A stretch of 64,000 nt of DNA, from the IMG/VR virus record IMGVR_UViG_3300008265_000001, one strand, 5' to 3'. Shown here in pieces: positions 3,060 through 37,777 of the stretch. The position numbers and the translations under genes were made by a program. Positions within the stretch are counted from its first letter, which is position 1. Each line of letters starts with the position of its first letter. Below the pieces are notes generated by a model. It had not been told where the DNA came from and searched no databases. It worked only from the letters and a program-made list of their open reading frames with translations. Source of the DNA: a virus.

Positions 3060-4832
3060 ATGAGCAGACCACCACGCAACGGCTATACGATAAACAGCGA
3101 TTTAGAGCTTTCGGCACTAGAGTCTTCATTATTACCTGAAAATACACCGCTAATCAACTTCGACCGCAAATGTTGGGGCGTTTACACGAACGTCGCCAGC
3201 AGCCTTAACGCATCATCTGGTTTCGAGTACATACCTCAGAACTCAATCGACGCATACACACTCACCTCAATCACCATTTCGACCGACACATACTCTCTTG
3301 ACCTCGCTGGCGCGACCCAATACATCAGTATCACCCTAGCAACCAACACGACCCTCACAATTCTCAATGCTGGCAAGTACACCAAATACTTCATCGAGTT
3401 GGTTCCAAATGGTCACATAATCAAGAATTTCACTGAACTTTTCGCGCTACCTAAGCAATACAGCCAAGCAACACTTCTCACAGCATATTTCGGCAAGCAA
3501 GTACTTGAACTACAATACATTAACAAACTTTACGCAAATATCAACTACTCCGACAACATCACTCCTGCTGGCGCAGTCGGTGCGGCAGAAAAAATAAATT
3601 GGGTAGCTCCTGCATCTGAAATTTTATATCTGGCGTTCGCATCTTCGGTCACGACGTATACAGGAAGCGGCATATCAAGCGTAAGTGCCACTGTAGGAAC
3701 TCCGAGTATCAGCAAGTCGCGCCTCTTACTTGGCTCCACTGGGCGGCTCGAAGCAACTAAGACCAGCGCACTAGATTTTGACGAAACTGATTTCACCATC
3801 TCCTTCTTTTCTGCCAAGACGAGCGTAGGCGAGTACGGTTGTATTCTAGGCAGCCACAAAGCGAGTAGCATAGGCTTTTATGTGGGTGTAGCGGCTGATA
3901 GCACCTTGTTTGCTGTCTTTGGTAGTAACGTACTTTCTTGTGCCTTACCAGACGATATCAAGGAGCATAGCGTCATCATTAATCGAATTGGGCGAGTCTA
4001 CAAAATATTTATAGATGGTATACTGAGCGCTCACCTCAAAGCAGCTAACAATTTCAACAACAACTCAACCGAGCCATTATGTATCGGCACTTTGAAGACT
4101 GCTACTGGAACACCCTCATGGACTTCACAAAGTTGGCAAGGATATCTGCGCCAGCTCACTATCAATACAGCAGCTAGCATTCCTTTTTCTGCCAATGATG
4201 TTCCACCAAAAGATACGTTAACTTCAACAACAGTCTTGCTGCTCAAATATAACGTCAATCACCTCGATTTTGCCCAGTACAGCCTCACAAGAAGTTTTAC
4301 GTCGAATGTTACGGTTCAACCACTCATTTCGTCAGGGAGGCTCAATAAGTACTCGCATATCGGCTATACAAACAGTAACTTGGAGATAACTGGCAATGTG
4401 ACGCTTGAAGCCAAGATATTCAATCCTATTGGCAACACTCGCGGAGCTATTATCGATGTTGAAGGTGGTTTTACGTGGGGCATCTATGACCTCAAGCTCA
4501 GAATCGTCTTTGGCAGCTTCACTTTGGATGGTGTGACTGATATTCCAGATAGTACAGTAGTTGATGTGTCTTTTGTAAAATCTGGTACAACTTGTTCGCT
4601 ATTCTTGAATGGAGTTCTTGAATCTACCAATACAACAAGCGAAGTGATGAATGCAAGCTCGTCAAGCTCGGAGTTCAGCATCAAACGTACTTTCACTCAA
4701 GATAGTGCGATAGCAAGTCTCAATACTTCATTGTTCCGCAGTAGGAGTTGGATTGAGATTGCACAGTTACGAGTCACCAAATCTGCGCGATACACTGGTG
4801 ACTATATTCCTGATGTTTTTTATGGTTCGTAA
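3060..4832 (+). CDS. structural/receptor-binding-type protein with two LamG (concanavalin-like) beta-sandwich-like segments
   Basis: 590 aa, Ser/Thr/Asn-rich. Segments DFDETDFTISFF...IINRIGRVYKIFIDGIL and VTLEAKIF...VSFVKSGTTCSLFLNGVL resemble LamG-fold repeats. Confidence 0.5.
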   Translation: MSRPPRNGYTINSDLELSALESSLLPENTPLINFDRKCWGVYTNVASSLNASSGFEYIPQNSIDAYTLTSITISTDTYSLDLAGATQYISITLATNTTLTILNAGKYTKYFIELVPNGHIIKNFTELFALPKQYSQATLLTAYFGKQVLELQYINKLYANINYSDNITPAGAVGAAEKINWVAPASEILYLAFASSVTTYTGSGISSVSATVGTPSISKSRLLLGSTGRLEATKTSALDFDETDFTISFFSAKTSVGEYGCILGSHKASSIGFYVGVAADSTLFAVFGSNVLSCALPDDIKEHSVIINRIGRVYKIFIDGILSAHLKAANNFNNNSTEPLCIGTLKTATGTPSWTSQSWQGYLRQLTINTAASIPFSANDVPPKDTLTSTTVLLLKYNVNHLDFAQYSLTRSFTSNVTVQPLISSGRLNKYSHIGYTNSNLEITGNVTLEAKIFNPIGNTRGAIIDVEGGFTWGIYDLKLRIVFGSFTLDGVTDIPDSTVVDVSFVKSGTTCSLFLNGVLESTNTTSEVMNASSSSSEFSIKRTFTQDSAIASLNTSLFRSRSWIEIAQLRVTKSARYTGDYIPDVFYGS

Positions 4833-5341
4833 GAATCGTCTACTAGTGAGTCTAGACATATTTCGTTATTTTTAAGCCACGCTTCAGTTTCAAGCACTTT
4901 AGTATAAAGACCTCGCATTTCGGGGGATTCTCTGTACCACGCATAGTAGTTGTCTTCTGCATTCCTTTTCCACGACATTTCATGGTCAGACTTCGCTGTT
5001 AGTTCTGCATAAATTGATTGGCTAGGTGTGGGTGGTTTTTCTCCAGAATCTTTTGCCACTTTCGCTAGTTTTCTGAAATTTCTAATTTCTTCAGATTCTT
5101 GTAGTGGGGCAAATTTATAAATCCCCATCTTAGATGCCAATTCAGGACTAATTAATCTAGGGGAGAGTCCTGATACAGCGTCATAGTCCCACCTTTCCGT
5201 GTTGATGTATACCCAACCTTCAGCCTCCATCTTAGTGACATATAAGGATGTGACTAGTTGTTTCTGTAGCCTTGCGTTCTCTACAGCTTCATCTAGCAAA
5301 GCTATTTGAGATTGATACCAGTCTAAGTCAATTTTTTCCAT
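4820..5341 (-). CDS. hypothetical protein
   Basis: Track ORF 4820-5371. The ATG at 5341 (MEKIDLDW) avoids overlap with the divergent gene at 5359. Confidence 0.55.
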   Translation of the reverse strand: MEKIDLDWYQSQIALLDEAVENARLQKQLVTSLYVTKMEAEGWVYINTERWDYDAVSGLSPRLISPELASKMGIYKFAPLQESEEIRNFRKLAKVAKDSGEKPPTPSQSIYAELTAKSDHEMSWKRNAEDNYYAWYRESPEMRGLYTKVLETEAWLKNNEICLDSLVDDSYEP

Positions 5342-5358
5342 GATGTTAAAATAAATAA

Positions 5359-5868
5359 ATGGCTCATCCAATTACATTCAGTACGCTTACTGAAGTCCTC
5401 AATCTAGATGTCAGCTCAATTCCCCAAGGATTTGCGGTTGTCTGCATTGAATTGAAGTCTTGGCTAATATACGATGCCACAGCTTCAGATGCAACTGTCG
5501 CAGGGCAGATATTCGCGCCTACGGCTGGTGCTGGGCGATGGTTTAGGTCGAACAATACTGCAAACAAACTAGACACGATTACGAGCGTCACAACCACTAC
5601 GTCCACGACTGTAGCTGATTTTACGAGTGTCGAGCAGGTTCGAGTGGTCTTTACACAAAACAGCACCATTAATCTACAGACGGTGCTGAGAAATGGTGCT
5701 GGTAGCTTGTTGTTAGATAGGAATAGTGGGGCTTGGACTATTACGGGATTTGACTCGCGCTTTAGATTTGGGAGTCTTTCTAGTCCTGCTTTTACTAGTA
5801 ATTTCTTGATTGTAAATTTTATATGTATAAATAGTTTGATATATGTTACAGAATATAATTCCTATTAA
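5359..5868 (+). CDS. hypothetical protein (possibly virion-associated)
   Basis: 169-aa ORF, Thr/Ser-rich, next to the fibre-like gene. Confidence 0.5.
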   Translation: MAHPITFSTLTEVLNLDVSSIPQGFAVVCIELKSWLIYDATASDATVAGQIFAPTAGAGRWFRSNNTANKLDTITSVTTTTSTTVADFTSVEQVRVVFTQNSTINLQTVLRNGAGSLLLDRNSGAWTITGFDSRFRFGSLSSPAFTSNFLIVNFICINSLIYVTEYNSY

Positions 5869-5871
5869 CGC

Positions 5872-6768
5872 CTAATTTATTTTCCATTTAATACTTAATT
5901 TATTTTCCATATCAAGTCTCCATGCCAAAGCATCTGCCCTACTAAAGAATGTGGGTGAGTTGTAATGCTTTTTATTAACGACAATTCTCGCTCTAAACTT
6001 TCCATTCCCGATATCATATACACCTTTACCAGAATTATCTCTTGCATTTAGTTTTTTATTTCTTATTAGTGTTTCTAGTTCTTTAATACTTCCCTCCCCA
6101 AACTTGTACACTTTTTCTGCCTCTAACTGTATAGCCAAAGCTTCTTCTCTTGTGGAATATGTTCCACAGCAAATTGTATTTTTATTAAGGTATATTCTTA
6201 CTTGCCATCTACCATCATCAAGTAATTTAATTCCTTTATTTGTCTGGATATTTTTATTTTTTTCTTTTATCTCCGATAAATATTTATAACTATCTCCCTC
6301 GGAAAATGTGCTAAATTTAGAAATTAAATTCTCTTTTTCTTTCAGTGCTTCTTCTTTTGTACAAAATGAGCCTACTCTTGCGGTTATACCTTTAAACTTA
6401 AGTCTTAACCTCCATTTATCATTTCTTTTATCTATGTGGCAGTTTATGTAGTATGACTCTCTTTCTGAAGGTCTAAAAACACTTTTGCAAATATTGTAGC
6501 AAAAATCCCAATTCTCAATACTGTCCAGATAAGTTTGTTCCAAATCTAGTAGCTTTTCTCTAGTAGATTCTTCAACAACAGTAAAATCAAAAACCTTTTC
6601 TCCGTATTTATTCCAAGCTTTTTGTAAATATTTGTTATCATGTATACCCTTTCTTAAATGTAATTTATGAGAGTTCCACCTAGTCCTTATACAAACTGAG
6701 CTGCCAACATAATACTTATTATTAGCAGTATTAGTAATAAAATAAATTCCTGATGTGTTCTTTTCCAT
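5872..6768 (-). CDS. GIY-YIG homing endonuclease with three AP2-like DNA-binding repeats
   Basis: GIYFITN...YYVGSS...R...H motif. There are three repeats of W(R/Q)(L/V/A)R...G(S/T)(F/Y)..(K/R)EEAL. Start set at the ATG at 6768. Confidence 0.8.
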   Translation of the reverse strand: MEKNTSGIYFITNTANNKYYVGSSVCIRTRWNSHKLHLRKGIHDNKYLQKAWNKYGEKVFDFTVVEESTREKLLDLEQTYLDSIENWDFCYNICKSVFRPSERESYYINCHIDKRNDKWRLRLKFKGITARVGSFCTKEEALKEKENLISKFSTFSEGDSYKYLSEIKEKNKNIQTNKGIKLLDDGRWQVRIYLNKNTICCGTYSTREEALAIQLEAEKVYKFGEGSIKELETLIRNKKLNARDNSGKGVYDIGNGKFRARIVVNKKHYNSPTFFSRADALAWRLDMENKLSIKWKIN

Positions 6769-31718: not shown

Positions 31719-31932
31719 CTGTTTTGTTTACCCAATCTTTGTTGATTTCAAGCCATTCTTTTAATTTAGTCATACATTTTACATGAGAGTCACCACAAAA
31801 AGCAACATCAGCACATGACTCTTCTTCTGGGGGATTGGAGGCAACCCACACCATTATTTTGTAGCGACCGTTCGGGAATATTTGGCGGTAGACGTAGTGA
31901 CCTTGGAAGCGAAAACCGCAAGTTGTTCTCAT
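31711..31932 (-). CDS. hypothetical Cys-rich protein
   Basis: 73 aa, with GGAG 7 nt upstream of the ATG. Confidence 0.55.
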   Translation of the reverse strand: MRTTCGFRFQGHYVYRQIFPNGRYKIMVWVASNPPEEESCADVAFCGDSHVKCMTKLKEWLEINKDWVNKTDE

Positions 31933-32092
31933 AATTATCTCCAGATATAGAGAAAGACAGCGTTTTTAGGACTGTCTTTCGGGTGGTCTAGGCGGCTACA
32001 GGGGTAGCTTTCCTAGAAAAAGAAACGATGTTGTTGACGTTTATTTTTTCGCTATTTTAGCTGTCGCTCGTAAAGTCCCAGCGTGTTCTAGG

Positions 32093-32169
32093 CTTCCTTA
32101 CCTGTCGAAACCGTTAGCCTCACTTGAAGTGTAAGGCAAGAGAGTCGAACTCTTGTCCAGCCAAGGAAG
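32093..32169 (-). ncRNA. tRNA-like module C (7-bp closing stem, T-arm-like hairpin, 7-bp capped hairpin)
   Basis: Minus strand: CTTCCTT GG CTGGAC AAGAG-TTCGACT-CTCTT GCCTTAC-ACTTCAA-GTGAGGC TA ACGGTTTCGACAGGT AAGGAAG. A G.U pair exists only on the minus strand. Confidence 0.45.
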
Positions 32170-32212
32170 TACCTAAACTCTCAATAACACTTATATACTA
32201 ACACAACTACCA

Positions 32213-32926
32213 TTAATTACATCTACCATTAGAAATAATTTCTTCAACCTTCTTTTGTGCATCTTTCTCAAACTTAAAACTTCCAAAGTTGGCTGTTTTA
32301 CCCTTTACGGGAAACCTTACCCTCCAAACATTTCTTTTCTTGTCAAAAGAATACCCCTTGAAAGACCTCCGCCTAGCCTCTCCCATAATTACCAAGTTGT
32401 TATTATTTTTCCTAGTAAGTTTACATGGGTCAATATTTTTATGGTACTCAATAAGTTGTAATTTTGTAAGTGACTTTAGATAGTCTACTTTACATTTAGC
32501 GTCTTCCTCATCTTCAAAATACCCGAATTTCAATTGGATTCCATTAACTCTGTAGGCTACAACAAATACCTTCTTTTCTTTATTCCAAGAGTAGTAGTTT
32601 GAGTCTTTATATTTTATTCCTAATACCCAATTTGTAGTGTCTCTTGATATATTGTAAACCGAAGCCCAATCCTTAACAGCATCTAAATAAAATTGCTCTA
32701 ATGAAAACACCGTAGCTGCGTTAGCTGAAGATAATTTGTCTACTATCGAGAATACAAACGAAGATTGACCAAAACTATTCCACTCGAATTGCAGAGAACG
32801 ATTATGGTGCTTGTTTTTATTTAGTCCATTTAAATGCTCTTTAAATCTACGTTCAATATGAAGACTAGAACCGATATAATACTTGCCATTGACTACATTA
32901 GTTATGTAGTATATCCCTATTGTCAT
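32213..32926 (-). CDS. GIY-YIG homing endonuclease with two AP2-like repeats
   Basis: GIYYITN..GKYYIGSS...R..EH. Repeats VAYRVNGIQLKFGYFEDEEDA and WRVRFPVKGKTANFGSFKFEKDA. Confidence 0.8.
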   Translation of the reverse strand: MTIGIYYITNVVNGKYYIGSSLHIERRFKEHLNGLNKNKHHNRSLQFEWNSFGQSSFVFSIVDKLSSANAATVFSLEQFYLDAVKDWASVYNISRDTTNWVLGIKYKDSNYYSWNKEKKVFVVAYRVNGIQLKFGYFEDEEDAKCKVDYLKSLTKLQLIEYHKNIDPCKLTRKNNNNLVIMGEARRRSFKGYSFDKKRNVWRVRFPVKGKTANFGSFKFEKDAQKKVEEIISNGRCN

Positions 32927-34098: not shown

Positions 34099-34151
34099 GT
34101 GATTAGTTGTTTTGTGTTTGTTTTACAAGTGTAGAGGGTTGTGGTGATGAT

Positions 34152-34163
34152 TGTATCTATCTT
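34152..34163 (-). promoter_or_regulatory. class-1 promoter-like motif (minus: AAGATAGATACA)
   Basis: Ends 53 nt upstream of the ATG at 34098. The leader is CA-rich. Confidence 0.45.
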
Positions 34164-34290
34164 AAGGTACATATAGTGAACCCCCGCAAATATCCGATGC
34201 GAGGGTTCTTTTTAGTTTGTACGACTAAAACATATAGGTGTACAGTACTTATATTTTACTTCCTGATTTTGCCTTGTTAATATCCTGTGG

Positions 34291-34391
34291 TCAAGCTTTA
34301 GACTTATATTAGCCGTATTACCATTATACTGATTCTGCCATGATAAGGCAGAAATGAGAATTGAACTCACATCGCTAATTATTAAGCTTGA
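34291..34391 (-). ncRNA. tRNA-like module A (inverted arm order; Y-RNA-like mimic or permuted tRNA)
   Basis: Minus strand: TCAAGCTT AATA ATTAG CGAT GTGAG-TTCAATT-CTCAT TTCTGCC-TTATCAT-GGCAGAA TCA GTAT-AATGGTA-ATAC GG CTAAT ATAAGTCTA AAGCTTGA. Confidence 0.6.
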
Positions 34392-34463
34392 AACGTCGAT
34401 ACAAAAGGGAAGGTTTTAAAATGAACTTGGAGCAATAACTTCAATTTCACTTTCAGATTGAGC

Positions 34464-34556
34464 CACTTCTCTAGACCCCAGATGTTTACCAGTTACATCA
34501 CCCTCCGATAGTCGGAGAAGTTCGGCTCGAACGAACAAGACTGCGGTTTAGAAGTG
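34464..34556 (-). ncRNA. tRNA-like module B (inverted arm order)
   Basis: Minus strand: CACTTCT AAA CCGCA GTCTT GTTCG-TTCGAGC-CGAAC TTCTCCG-ACTAT-CGGAGGG TG ATGT-AACTGGTAA-ACAT C TGGGG TCTAG AGAAGTG. Confidence 0.6.
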
Positions 34557-34612
34557 TTGTATAAGCTTTAACTTACGCTCTTTAATTAATATACTCGACC
34601 AACTTACTACCT

Positions 34613-34635
34613 CGCATCTACCTAAAGACAGATAT
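34613..34635 (-). promoter_or_regulatory. class-1-variant motif heading the ORF-free RNA locus (minus: ATATCTGTCTTTAGGTAGATGCG)
   Basis: Matches 37273-37295 at 20 of 23 positions. It ends 56 nt upstream of module B. Confidence 0.45.
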
Positions 34636-36193: not shown

Positions 36194-36763
36194 TCAAACC
36201 TCCGATGTATAAATTAAATCGTTTACTTTCAAATCTTTAGGGAATACTAACTCAGTATTAGTTGTAAAACTGCTCTCTTTGAACAAAACGTAATTTGTTG
36301 GTTGAATTGTTAATCTCCCATTATCAAGTCGAATAAACATGAACTCTTTGGCTTGCTCAGGGTACTCAGTGAAACCATCGTCTAGAGGACAGACAGAAAA
36401 GAGATAAGTGCCTAGAAGAGCTGTTTCAGCGTCAATGGCAGCTTTGCATCGTAAGTTGGCTAGATACTTATACTCAATTGCAGACCAGTTTTGGCTGTAG
36501 CAGTCCCAGCGTTGAGCTTGCTTAATGTCCCAAGTGTCGGCAGAGAAAGATAACGGGTCTTCAAACAATATTGCATGAGGTGGCAAATTACGAAAAAATG
36601 CCCCACACTCCAACATAACGTGTAAGCCCCAACTCCGACCACACACACTGTTGAGAGCAAACCAAACAGCAGGGATGTAGCCAATAAATTGCTTGTGAGT
36701 GAAATTAGTGTCTATCCAAATATATTTGTGTTTTGGGATGTCGCCCACTGCAATGTTTTTCAT
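36194..36763 (-). CDS. hypothetical protein
   Basis: 189-aa ORF immediately after the terminator at 36781-36810. Confidence 0.65.
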   Translation of the reverse strand: MKNIAVGDIPKHKYIWIDTNFTHKQFIGYIPAVWFALNSVCGRSWGLHVMLECGAFFRNLPPHAILFEDPLSFSADTWDIKQAQRWDCYSQNWSAIEYKYLANLRCKAAIDAETALLGTYLFSVCPLDDGFTEYPEQAKEFMFIRLDNGRLTIQPTNYVLFKESSFTTNTELVFPKDLKVNDLIYTSEV

Positions 36764-36780
36764 TTGTTAAGTTTAGATAT

Positions 36781-36810
36781 AAAAATGCCCCTAACCAATG
36801 TTCAAGGGGC
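36781..36810 (-). terminator. intrinsic terminator closing the ORF-free locus
   Basis: Minus strand: GCCCCT-TGAACATTGGTT-AGGGGC followed by ATTTTTAT. Confidence 0.7.
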
Positions 36811-37272
36811 GCTTCTCGTTGAGGTTATCTTAGATGGTGCTAATTGTCTCCAAGTGGTAAGGTTATGTCGAAGGAGTAACGGATTCATGACTTCTCTTCT
36901 CCCCTAAGACTAGAGCTTACTTGCTGCTTCATGTATTGTAAAACCTAAAAACAATACACTACAGAGTGGGTGGTTAGGTTCCTCAGCCCGTGCCGATATG
37001 CACCTACACCTTGGGTTGTTGCTGGATAGCCCTGTCCTAGACCCAACTTCGCAGAGCTTGATTACTTAGGCTCAAGTTGCGGCTGGGGTTAGCAGGAACA
37101 CGCCCACAGATTGCATATTGACTATTTTGCAAATATCCAGATTGCAAAGAGGGGAACCCTAAGACCGCAACCTCTTTGCTTTGTTTAGCTGGTAATTGAA
37201 GAGTCACCTCCTTACTTACTTGCTACACTGCATTGCTGCATCTCTTTTAATATAACTCAACTTCTTTTTCTG
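36811..37272 (-). ncRNA. candidate large structured ncRNA (~460 nt, GC-rich, ORF-free)
   Basis: No ORF of 60 aa or more on the minus strand. There are 83 G+C in 36961-37110 (55%). It has nested helices, a promoter-like motif at the 5' side and a terminator at the 3' side. Confidence 0.5.
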
Positions 37273-37295
37273 CGCCTCTATCCAAAGACAGATAT
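37273..37295 (-). promoter_or_regulatory. class-1-variant motif (minus: ATATCTGTCTTTGGATAGAGGCG)
   Basis: Near-identical to 34613-34635. Both head ORF-free structured loci. Confidence 0.45.
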
Positions 37296-37363
37296 CTACA
37301 TGGCAAAACTCAGTTTCAGTTACTAAACACATACAATCAGTCCGAGAGAAAGATACTGCCATG

Positions 37364-37777
37364 TTAATCCTTAAAAAGTTCTACAAGTTCACGCAAATTA
37401 CTGATAGCTTCATCTTCGTTGTCAGCGCCGTCCCAAGCTTTTTGCCAGAGCTTTGTCGCCTTCTTTTCTGACAATCCTAGTTTTGATAGACCTACATCAT
37501 TGAAAATCAAATCAGTTACTTGTTTTTCTATAGAAGCACATAGAGGTTGCGCTTCATCATAAACCTTTTTCGCCGCCGTGAACTCTTTTTCAAACACTTC
37601 CCGTTTATCAGCATATTCTAATAGAGATGCTGCCATTTTCCTTACCTCATCTACAGACTTAAAAGCTGTACCCGCAGGTGATTTAGGGGGTTTTGGGATT
37701 TCTAATACAGGTTTTGCTTTGCGTATTGCTGCAATTCTTTGCTTCAAAGGTAATTCAAAAACACCATCGTCTAACAT
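37364..37777 (-). CDS. hypothetical protein
   Basis: 137-aa ORF. Confidence 0.6.
   Translation of the reverse strand: MLDDGVFELPLKQRIAAIRKAKPVLEIPKPPKSPAGTAFKSVDEVRKMAASLLEYADKREVFEKEFTAAKKVYDEAQPLCASIEKQVTDLIFNDVGLSKLGLSEKKATKLWQKAWDGADNEDEAISNLRELVELFKD

Follow-up and report, generated by a model that had tools for sequence, protein, structure and literature searches.

A probable modular structured noncoding RNA gene in phages of the cyanobacterium Pseudanabaena

The ORF-free locus and its homologues

The window analyzed here is a 64,000-nt stretch of viral DNA (IMG/VR record IMGVR_UViG_3300008265_000001). On its minus strand, the stop codon of a 137-aa gene (37364–37777) and the ATG of a 189-aa gene (36194–36763) enclose a gap that contains no ORF of 60 aa or more; the longest minus-strand ORFs within 36763–37364 encode 56, 48, 33, and 28 aa. 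Our ORF listing thereby reproduces the gap noted in a preliminary description of the sequence. The G+C count given there (83 of 150 nt at 36961–37110) is exact and is also the highest value over all 150-nt segments of the 64 kb (mean G+C 0.41, SD 0.049; 0.016% of the segments reach 83).

Searches of phage records with blastn matched the Pseudanabaena phages Pam2 and PA-SR01, in which the syntenic ORF-free gaps are larger (1.5 and 0.9 kb, respectively). Together with IMG/VR, JGI, ENA, and Logan contigs, they form a set of ∼12 distinct, closely related sequences. Contigs L003 and L006 were found by pattern scans, and L007–L010, L040, and L041 via the flanking proteins; L042–L054 came from contigs in which the upstream protein has a homologue. 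Exact-pattern scanning of viral contigs returned one locus, and scanning of metagenomes returned one true locus plus two chance matches in AT-rich sequence, apparently a eukaryotic kinase gene. Two exact core patterns gave no match in 185,579 bacterial and archaeal species (one genome each). As far as these data reach, the family is confined to one freshwater cyanophage clade, the Pseudanabaena phages. In the literature, we found no mention of this RNA; it is described neither in the PA-SR01 paper, nor in a paper on related Pseudanabaena phages Pan1–5, nor in a catalogue of >10,000 viral structured RNAs (29–151 nt each).

The homologues share no conserved ORF over the body of the putative RNA; the frame is interrupted by indels, and entire domains are exchanged. 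Coding potential was rejected for the 56-, 48-, and 28-aa ORFs, which lack both conservation and Pfam matches. No homologue has a suitably spaced start codon downstream of the Shine–Dalgarno-like GGAGGT at the locus. A coding remnant lies upstream of the promoter-like block described below (37296–37363, minus strand). It begins with MAVSFSRTDCMC and represents the first ∼14 codons of a truncated small gene, a homologue of Pam2_141, after which the ORF continues through the promoter. The gene is complete in L041, L006, and Pam2, where one or two further small genes follow. Its identity is based on comparing ATGGCAGTATCTTTCTCTCGGACTGATTGTATGTG from the window with the L041 and L006 genes; a tblastn match of Pam2_141 residues 1–27 to the window is weak (E = 0.048). 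The objection that the locus could be a decayed gene, with an intact ORF in homologues, is thus true of the 5′ 70 nt (37296–37363) and does not extend to the RNA body.

Folding of the single sequence is unremarkable. The minimum free energy (MFE) of the 583-nt minus strand has a z-score of −0.41 relative to dinucleotide shuffles, 36 of 100 of which fold equally well, and the plus strand does not reach significance either (z = −1.64). Complementarity within one sequence is therefore not by itself above chance, and the locus is not “helix-dense” in the thermodynamic sense, as had been claimed. The structure derived below from comparison is not the MFE structure (−117.6 kcal/mol, with pseudoknot stem S1 left out, versus −132.0 kcal/mol). 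Judging by the alignments, the structural signal comes solely from the homologues and is comparative rather than thermodynamic.

Promoter-like block and transcript ends

The predicted primary transcript is ∼463 nt long (36781–37243, minus strand), with its 5′ end placed from a −10-like box and its 3′ end at the U-run that follows a hairpin. The box, TATATT (37249–37254; TATAGT in relatives), belongs to a TTATAKT block that is invariant in alignment A1. It is preceded by ATATCTGTCTTTGGATAGAGGCG (37273–37295, minus strand), an element that all relatives share ahead of the RNA. The complete block, ATATCTGTCTTTGGATAGAGGCG-N18-TATATT (37295–37249), precedes the RNA in every relative.

A likeness between ATATCTGTCTTTGGATAGAGGCG and positions 34635–34613, reported previously as 20 of 23 identical positions, was reproduced. 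The core of the element, TCTTTnGnTAGAnG, occurs nine times in the window versus 1.8 times expected (∼5-fold enrichment). A TAnAnT box also follows the copies near 34628, 40250, and 29950, and several core copies are succeeded by such a box and then by a gene or by another ORF-free RNA-like locus. At a spacing of 17 nt from TATATT, a TTGACA-like −35 hexamer is absent, the sequence reading AGGCGC at this position, and a consensus promoter scan called no site at the box. Lacking a TTGACA-like −35, the block does not look like a canonical sigma-70 promoter, and we term it promoter-like. The conserved upstream element apparently stands in place of the −35. Transcription would most likely start a few bases past the TATATT box, near position 37243, with this phage-specific element ahead of the box.

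The 3′ end is marked by the hairpin GCCCCU-N12-AGGGGC, followed by A and U5 (36781–36810, minus strand). Its stem (36810–36787) has 6–7 pairs and runs into CATTTTT, a feature of intrinsic terminators. The stem is 100% paired in six sequences and shows two compensatory pairs, GCCCCU/AGGGGC being replaced by GUCUCU/AGAGAC. In some relatives the U-run after the hairpin is missing, and the sequence continues into tRNA or tRNA-like genes. The hairpin was scored as terminator-like: it resembles an intrinsic terminator and is predicted to be one, and transcription in the window would end at this conserved hairpin and its U-run. An earlier suggestion that the locus has its own promoter-like motif and intrinsic terminator is in keeping with these findings, as the block and the hairpin are conserved in the homologues, T5 is present, and the stem covaries.

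Terminal helix P1 and an accessory hairpin

The two ends of the RNA can pair as helix P1. Its 5′ strand, GAGGTGACTCTT (37199–37210, minus strand; GAGGUGACUCUU in the RNA), pairs with AAGAUAACCUC (36821–36831, minus strand) and includes the GGAGGT mentioned above, which is invariant. All six sequences compared keep the five outer pairs (100% paired), with changes from G-C to G·U only, and the inner six pairs are 86% paired. In relatives, the 3′ strand reads AAUCUC or AAUUUC, and pairing is kept through G·U pairs that are possible solely on the minus strand. The complementarity of P1 persists in every relative, but the helix shows no compensatory change and thus has conserved complementarity only.

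A 9-bp hairpin pointed out previously, GCAAAGAGG-N18-CCTCTTTGC (37144–37179, minus strand), recurs in some of the relatives. Its stem is identical in L010/L048, L042, and L043 and has one changed base in L052 (CCTCTTTGT, with a G·U closing pair). It does not covary, and the hairpin is absent from Pam2, PA-SR01, and L003; we regard it as accessory.

Domain M2 is a covarying three-way junction

P1 encloses domain M2 (37021–37140, minus strand), a three-way junction supported by covariation in the homologues. Helix H1 (CUGGAUA/UAUCCAG, 37140–37134 with 37028–37022) leads into the 5-bp stem H2 (37132–37128 with 37115–37111) and into helix H3 (UCCUG/CAGGG, 37097–37093 with 37034–37030), which closes a variable sub-domain (37092–37035). 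H2 is capped by the 12-nt apical loop AAAUAGUCAAUA (37116–37127).

In seven sequences, all 17 pairs of M2 are always paired (119 pair cells, all standard), and 6 of the 17 are compensatory. None of 500 shuffles reaches the observed score, and sliding the register leaves no compensatory pair. When this alignment was turned into a covariance model, the model retrieved all close relatives. The resulting alignment of 17 distinct rows, itself fitted to the model, has 98% of its cells paired and compensatory changes at 9 of 17 pairs.

The loop AAAUAGUCAAUA is nearly constant over four different stem sequences (GCA/UGC, CGG/CCG, GAG/CUC, and AGG/CCU). A second, weaker M2-like domain with a similar hairpin loop, RAAUAGGCAAUA, lies upstream in Pam2, PA-SR01, and L043. 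Complements of the 12-nt loop within the window do not occur beyond chance, and no partner or target was found there. The invariant loop and the junction nucleotides of M2 would be contact sites for a partner. Candidate contacts are the 12-nt loop and the GGAGGU of P1, which faces a freely varying tail.

Domain M3 contains a pseudoknot and a palindromic loop

Domain M3 (36850–37014, minus strand) is closed by the helices CCAAG/CUUGG (37014–37010 with 36854–36850) and GUAG/UUAC (37007–37004 with 36860–36857) and contains hairpin H7, an H-type pseudoknot, and a distal stem-loop. It was evaluated in alignment A3, a concatenation of conserved segments from six sequences whose pairs represent nine tested helices across P1, M2, and M3. 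Pairing over the 45 pairs of this alignment is 97%, and 11 of the pairs are compensatory, versus 0–2 in slid controls; slid-register controls are ∼0 throughout.

Hairpin H7 (GUGC-AUAUCG-GCAC, 36990–37003, minus strand) changes to GUAC/GUAC and GCGC/GCGU-type pairs. It corresponds to a previously proposed GTGC/GCAC helix (37003–37000 with 36993–36990), which thereby gains the support of covariation. The pseudoknot (36931–36980, minus strand) consists of stem S1 (AACCUAA, 36980–36974, with UUAGGUU, 36948–36942, in the loop of S2) and stem S2 (36958–36951 with 36939–36932). In four type-A sequences, its 19 pairs are 92% paired with nine compensatory changes (three in S1 and five in S2), a result not reached in any of 500 shuffles. 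S2 is the hairpin noted before at 36931–36939/36951–36959, now backed by covariation. Type-B relatives have an unrelated sequence, in which the same interleaved topology is possible (ATCACC/GGTGAT and TCTTGG/CCAAGA; read by eye and uncounted).

All M3 types contain a C-rich stretch that could reach back to M2. In the window, CCCAC (36966–36970, minus strand) is complementary to GUGGG of M2 (37107–37103), and the other M3 types offer CGCCC against GGGCG and CGUCC against GGGUG. This long-range M2–M3 contact, proposed earlier as a GTGGG/CCCAC helix, is plausible. Its register varies between M3 types and its M2 side is invariant, which leaves the pairing itself unproven.

The distal M3 hairpin has the palindromic hexamer UCAUGA (36885–36890, minus strand) in its apical loop. 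All eight M3-bearing variants have a palindrome in this loop: UCAUGA in five, including the window, UCAUGG/CAUG in two, and UAGCUA in L043, where the distal stem and the loop are both replaced. In a loop of 7–9 nt, such a palindrome cannot pair with itself. For L9.3 of OLE and L21a of GOLLD, a switch from one palindrome to another served as an argument for intermolecular kissing loops (PMC12286853). The switch seen here is one independent case, to which we assign a ∼3% chance in a random 7-nt loop. We propose self-association through symmetric kissing of the M3 loop, tentatively and as less likely than not.

The seven helices listed in the preliminary description are each complementary as given there, with G36959·U36931 as the sole wobble pair. 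The comparison gives covariation support to two of them and leaves one plausible; another is conserved but does not covary, and the remaining three either conflict with the comparative evidence or lack conservation. This last group comprises GTTCCT/AGGAAC, which overlaps the covarying H3 and S1 and is broken in L001, L042, and L043; CAGCC/GGCTG, which has no counterpart in relatives; and CAACTT/AAGTTG, in which a G-to-A change in L003, L041, and L042 is instead compensated in a competing pairing (ACC-C-CA/UG-GGU to ACC-C-UA/UA-GGU).

One-sided changes on the minus strand convert G-C to G·U or U-A to U·G. Because all wobble substitutions are G·U on this strand, the signal is at the RNA level and specific to the minus strand. 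The compensatory pairs in M2, in the M3 pseudoknot, and in the 3′ hairpin speak against a lack of covariation, which had been named as grounds for abandoning the RNA. Several of these changes may be single events that were inherited by descent or moved by recombination.

Modularity of the gene and its neighbors

Natural variants separate the parts of the RNA. L052 has P1, M2, and the tail and lacks M3; M3 is also absent from L010 and L048–L051, and the L010/L048 type has another module in its place. In L053, half of M2 is deleted. M2 is found in all relatives except one decayed copy. On this distribution, M2 is the common core and M3 an accessory domain. The gene evidently tolerates loss and insertion in nature, being dispensable in some phages or decaying there.

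An insertion is seen in L041, where a 1.35-kb element splits the RNA gene between M2 and M3. The element matches HEARO/omega-RNA (5345–5524, E = 2.4e-7, below the gathering score) and encodes a 362-aa RRXRR protein without HNH. IsrB elements are common in these phages, and solo hairpins related to the IsrB/HEARO element also occur within the locus.

The downstream neighbor varies between the 189-aa gene, tRNA-Lys and tRNA-Met (directly 3′ of the RNA in L006), and tRNA-like genes (L003, L041, L042, L043, and L052), so that the RNA is not tied to any one gene. In PA-SR01, tRNA-like pseudogene pieces follow. Of the tRNA-like island elements that lie 3′ of the RNA in relatives, none was found in the window.

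Comparison with known RNA families

At gathering score, Rfam 15 identified only a permuted tmRNA in the 64 kb (31988–32191), which ARAGORN calls at 31897–32223, ∼4.6 kb from the RNA. Relaxing the threshold to E = 10 on 1.6 kb and on 486 nt produced nothing credible over the interval, the only matches there being structure-less lncRNA models on the opposite strand, far below threshold. The RNA locus in three relatives gave no match at E up to 1. No Rfam scan returned GOLLD, ROOL, OLE, or raiA, and the HEARO model gave no match in the window either. ARAGORN and Rfam detected no tRNA, tmRNA, RNase P, SRP, or 6S RNA within 36775–37260, in agreement with a previous failure to match RNase P, tmRNA, SRP, or introns by eye.

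Particular assignments were considered and rejected. A group I intron has no Rfam match, and the flanks are separate complete ORFs, with a promoter block of the RNA's own and a varying downstream neighbor. Some strings resemble group I Q/R/S elements or RNase P CR motifs by eye, but the likeness was set aside because the helices are arranged differently and Rfam gives no match. HEARO/omega-RNA identity was dismissed because no HEARO match and no RRXRR homologue (best tblastn E = 3.6) were found in the window. Membership among riboswitches or cis leaders was discarded for want of a constant downstream gene.

The tRNA region of phage T4 encodes the stable RNAs species 1 and 2 (bands C and D), which have tRNA genes around them and no known role. 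These RNAs are likewise phage-encoded but much smaller (∼140 nt and below). The omega-RNAs of IscB and IsrB (HEARO) share the locus with the cyanophage RNA in L041; there, however, the element is an insertion into the ncRNA gene and not the ncRNA itself.

The cyanophage RNA appears closest to GOLLD and ROOL, which it resembles in its setting, its complexity, and the absence of a protein partner. GOLLD and ROOL are encoded by phages and prophages, often beside tRNA islands, and the cyanophage RNA lies near tRNA or tRNA-like genes in relatives. Each of the three runs to hundreds of nucleotides, has numerous helices and pseudoknots, and joins a conserved part to a variable one (PMC12286853). None has a known associated protein, and a symmetric kissing loop is a possible further likeness (PMC12286853). 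In contrast to GOLLD and ROOL, the cyanophage RNA is smaller (body ∼390 nt), can dispense with one whole domain, and is found in one clade of Pseudanabaena phages; neither Rfam model matches its sequence or structure. OLE is also a large multi-domain RNA, in which a palindromic loop with switching palindromes marks a dimer-forming kissing loop (PMC12286853). It differs in occurring in Gram-positive extremophiles (Bacillota), in its length of ∼600 nt, and in working with proteins such as bS21; the cyanophage RNA has no Rfam match to it. GOLLD, ROOL, and OLE have been described as RNA-only homo-oligomers held together by kissing loops and A-minor contacts.

Discussion

The absence of a conserved ORF and a covarying multi-domain fold support the central proposal of the preliminary description, a large structured ncRNA. 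As far as can be read from aligned sequences, the locus is non-coding, its fold is conserved, the signal is strand-specific, and the domains are modular. We conclude that it is very probably a transcribed gene for a structured ncRNA of a new family. It would be a separate gene, ∼460 nt here and part of an ORF-free locus of 0.9–1.5 kb in relatives. The ends of its product would pair as P1 and enclose two autonomous domains, M2 and an optional, pseudoknotted M3, and the RNA would act in trans as a folded scaffold, neither encoding nor regulating a neighboring gene.

The gap could alternatively be intergenic debris made of decayed small genes, scars of mobile elements, and tRNA fragments. The truncated gene in the 5′ 70 nt, the coming and going of modules (with L052 and L053 as deletion variants), the IsrB/HEARO element with its related solo hairpins, and the tRNA-like pieces after the RNA in PA-SR01 would all fit such an origin. 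Debris, however, would not retain at least 45 base pairs through 11–20 compensatory substitutions, nor would it hold loop and junction sequences nearly invariant or preserve the promoter block and the 3′ hairpin, and we consider this explanation improbable. A distance of 18 nt separates the end of the terminator-like hairpin from the start codon of the 189-aa gene (36194–36763), which is on the same strand, as would be expected of a cis-acting leader, that is, an attenuator or riboswitch-like 5′ UTR of this gene. Yet L006, L042, L043, L044, and L052 have tRNA or tRNA-like genes after the RNA and no 189-aa gene called downstream, and conversely, loci with 43–66% identical homologues of the 189-aa protein have no RNA homologue upstream by nhmmer and covariance model. 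A length of 460 nt and paired ends are moreover atypical of leaders, which makes a leader quite improbable.

Large size, a pseudoknotted core, strings that recall group I Q/R/S elements by eye, and the frequency of IsrB elements in these phages might suggest a diverged catalytic or guide RNA (a group I or II intron, RNase P, or an omega-RNA of IscB, IsrB, or TnpB) that Rfam has missed. We give this reading very little weight: the search at E up to 10 on 486 nt was silent, although Rfam does detect HEARO in the L041 insertion; the locus has its own promoter instead of a split host gene around it; the helix order, H1[H2,H3] then H5[...], is unlike the P3–P7 topology of group I introns; and the window contains no RRXRR gene. 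The least plausible alternative, to which we attach hardly any credence, is an element acting as DNA, for example an origin of replication, a packaging site, or a hotspot of recombination. Its attractions are the G+C maximum of the window, the ORF-free sequence, and the concentration of insertions and deletions. Against it, variation keeps G·U pairs, which in the opposite strand would read as A·C mismatches; pairings that are long-range or pseudoknotted make no sense for a DNA element; and no repeats or iterons were seen.

If the locus encodes a structured ncRNA, it would join a small group. Large, intricate RNAs of bacteria and phages without a known role are few, with GOLLD, ROOL, OLE, and raiA as the main examples, and each opened new structural biology. 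Comparative support for the fold is strong at the sequence level, and the distribution is narrow. The RNA is short enough for probing and cryo-EM, and natural deletion variants already separate its core (M2) from its accessory domain (M3). Unlike most candidates, which are known from metagenomes only, it is present in two cultured phage–host systems (Pam2 and PA-SR01 on Pseudanabaena), so that expression studies, knock-outs, and partner searches are feasible. The locus also marks a cyanophage RNA-gene region that includes a permuted tmRNA and unusual tRNA-like genes and that annotations have left blank or filled with doubtful ORFs.

Palindromic M3 loops would kiss symmetrically and join two or more copies of the RNA, as in OLE, GOLLD, and ROOL. 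A wider and still more speculative proposal, which we rate as unlikely, is that the RNA represents a new, protein-independent class of “ornate” phage RNA in which M2 binds a host or phage macromolecule through its invariant 12-nt loop and its junction, M3 links copies into dimers or larger assemblies by a symmetric kissing loop, and the gene is a safe harbor for IsrB that lends its promoter for the guide. In L041, the 11 nt immediately preceding the HEARO match on its 5′ side, the expected position of the guide, repeat ACTCCAAGGTG of the ncRNA itself; a candidate IsrB/omega-RNA target in the uninterrupted ncRNA gene would be ...CAACAACTCCAAGGTG...

Variation in the ncRNA Gene of Related Phages

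In one related contig (L041), the gene for the ∼460-nt structured RNA (ncRNA) is interrupted between its core domain, M2, and its accessory pseudoknotted domain, M3, by an IsrB-type element (5300-6645). This element comprises a match to HEARO/omega-RNA (5345-5524) and a gene for an RRXRR protein of 362 amino acids without HNH (5549-6637). The HEARO match is directly preceded on its 5′ side by an 11-nt copy of the target sequence ACTCCAAGGTG. Further RRXRR genes are found at other places in L048-L050.

A small hairpin module of the form CGTTTYRG-stem-AYCGTAA-stem recurs in related loci (L002 ∼2870-2900; L010 ∼3590-3620 and 3786-3815; L047 ∼1421-1452; L041 5302-5330), where it directly precedes M2 or occupies the junction of M2 with M3. 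Covariation is seen in its stems (GGGAGAT/ATCTCC, GGGGGAT/ATCCCC, GGGGAAT/ATTCCT, and GAGGGT/ACCCTC). The module, which is not found in the ncRNA of the window, may represent the end or scar of an IsrB element, or else another RNA module.

Parts of the ncRNA are also lacking in some relatives. M3 is cleanly missing from L052, and comparison of L053 with this locus reveals a natural deletion variant (L053 4290-4300) in which the 5′ half of M2 is gone, the deletion junction falling within two similar strings, GGTCTTAGG and CCTAAGTAAT. Four loci possess a weaker M2 paralogue upstream (L001 2306-2352, L002 2771-2859, L006 7194-7276, and L043 4377-4432), in which CTGGAT is followed by a hairpin with the loop RAATAGGCAATA and a closing TCCAG; this paralogue is absent from the window.

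Pam2_140, annotated as a hypothetical protein of 71 amino acids in the cultured Pseudanabaena phage Pam2 (L001 3160-3375), lies antisense to a module of the ncRNA locus. Because its reading frame is disrupted in PA-SR01, a second cultured phage, the annotation is probably spurious.

Other RNA and RNA-like Loci and Promoter-like Sites

In relatives, tRNA-like genes are located 3′ of the ncRNA (L052 4505-4625, L042 4981-5115, L043 5016-5184, L003 10440-10580, and L041 6911-7040). Their acceptor stem pairs GGAGAG with CTCTCC, the D-arm (GGCGGAATTATTAGACGC) is of class-II type, the T-arm reads GCAGGTGAAAATCCTGC, and an insert of 60-150 nt takes the place of the anticodon arm; none of the five is called by ARAGORN. 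In PA-SR01, the gene is reduced to a 5′ fragment.

A second ORF-free locus of the window (34100-34635, minus strand) is preceded by a terminator and headed by the same promoter-like motif as the ncRNA (ATATCTGTCTTTAGGTAGATGCG-N19-TATATT). It contains T-arm-like strings, is called by neither ARAGORN nor Rfam, and shows no homology to the tRNA-like genes of relatives. The motif belongs to a family of promoter-like sites (window 835, 29950, 34628, 37288, and 40250 on the minus strand, and others) with the consensus TCTGTCTTTnGATAGAKG, followed 16-22 nt on by TAnAnT. Nine copies of the core occur in the window (1.8 expected), and the sites may constitute a phage-specific promoter class or bind a regulator.

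The window also encodes a permuted (two-piece) tmRNA (31897-32223, minus strand), recognized by the Rfam model tmRNA_permuted (62.6 bits) and by ARAGORN, which assigns the tag peptide VNNIVSFSRKATPVAA. A weaker tmRNA copy is present in L003 (13618-13893), with a tRNA-Trp embedded.
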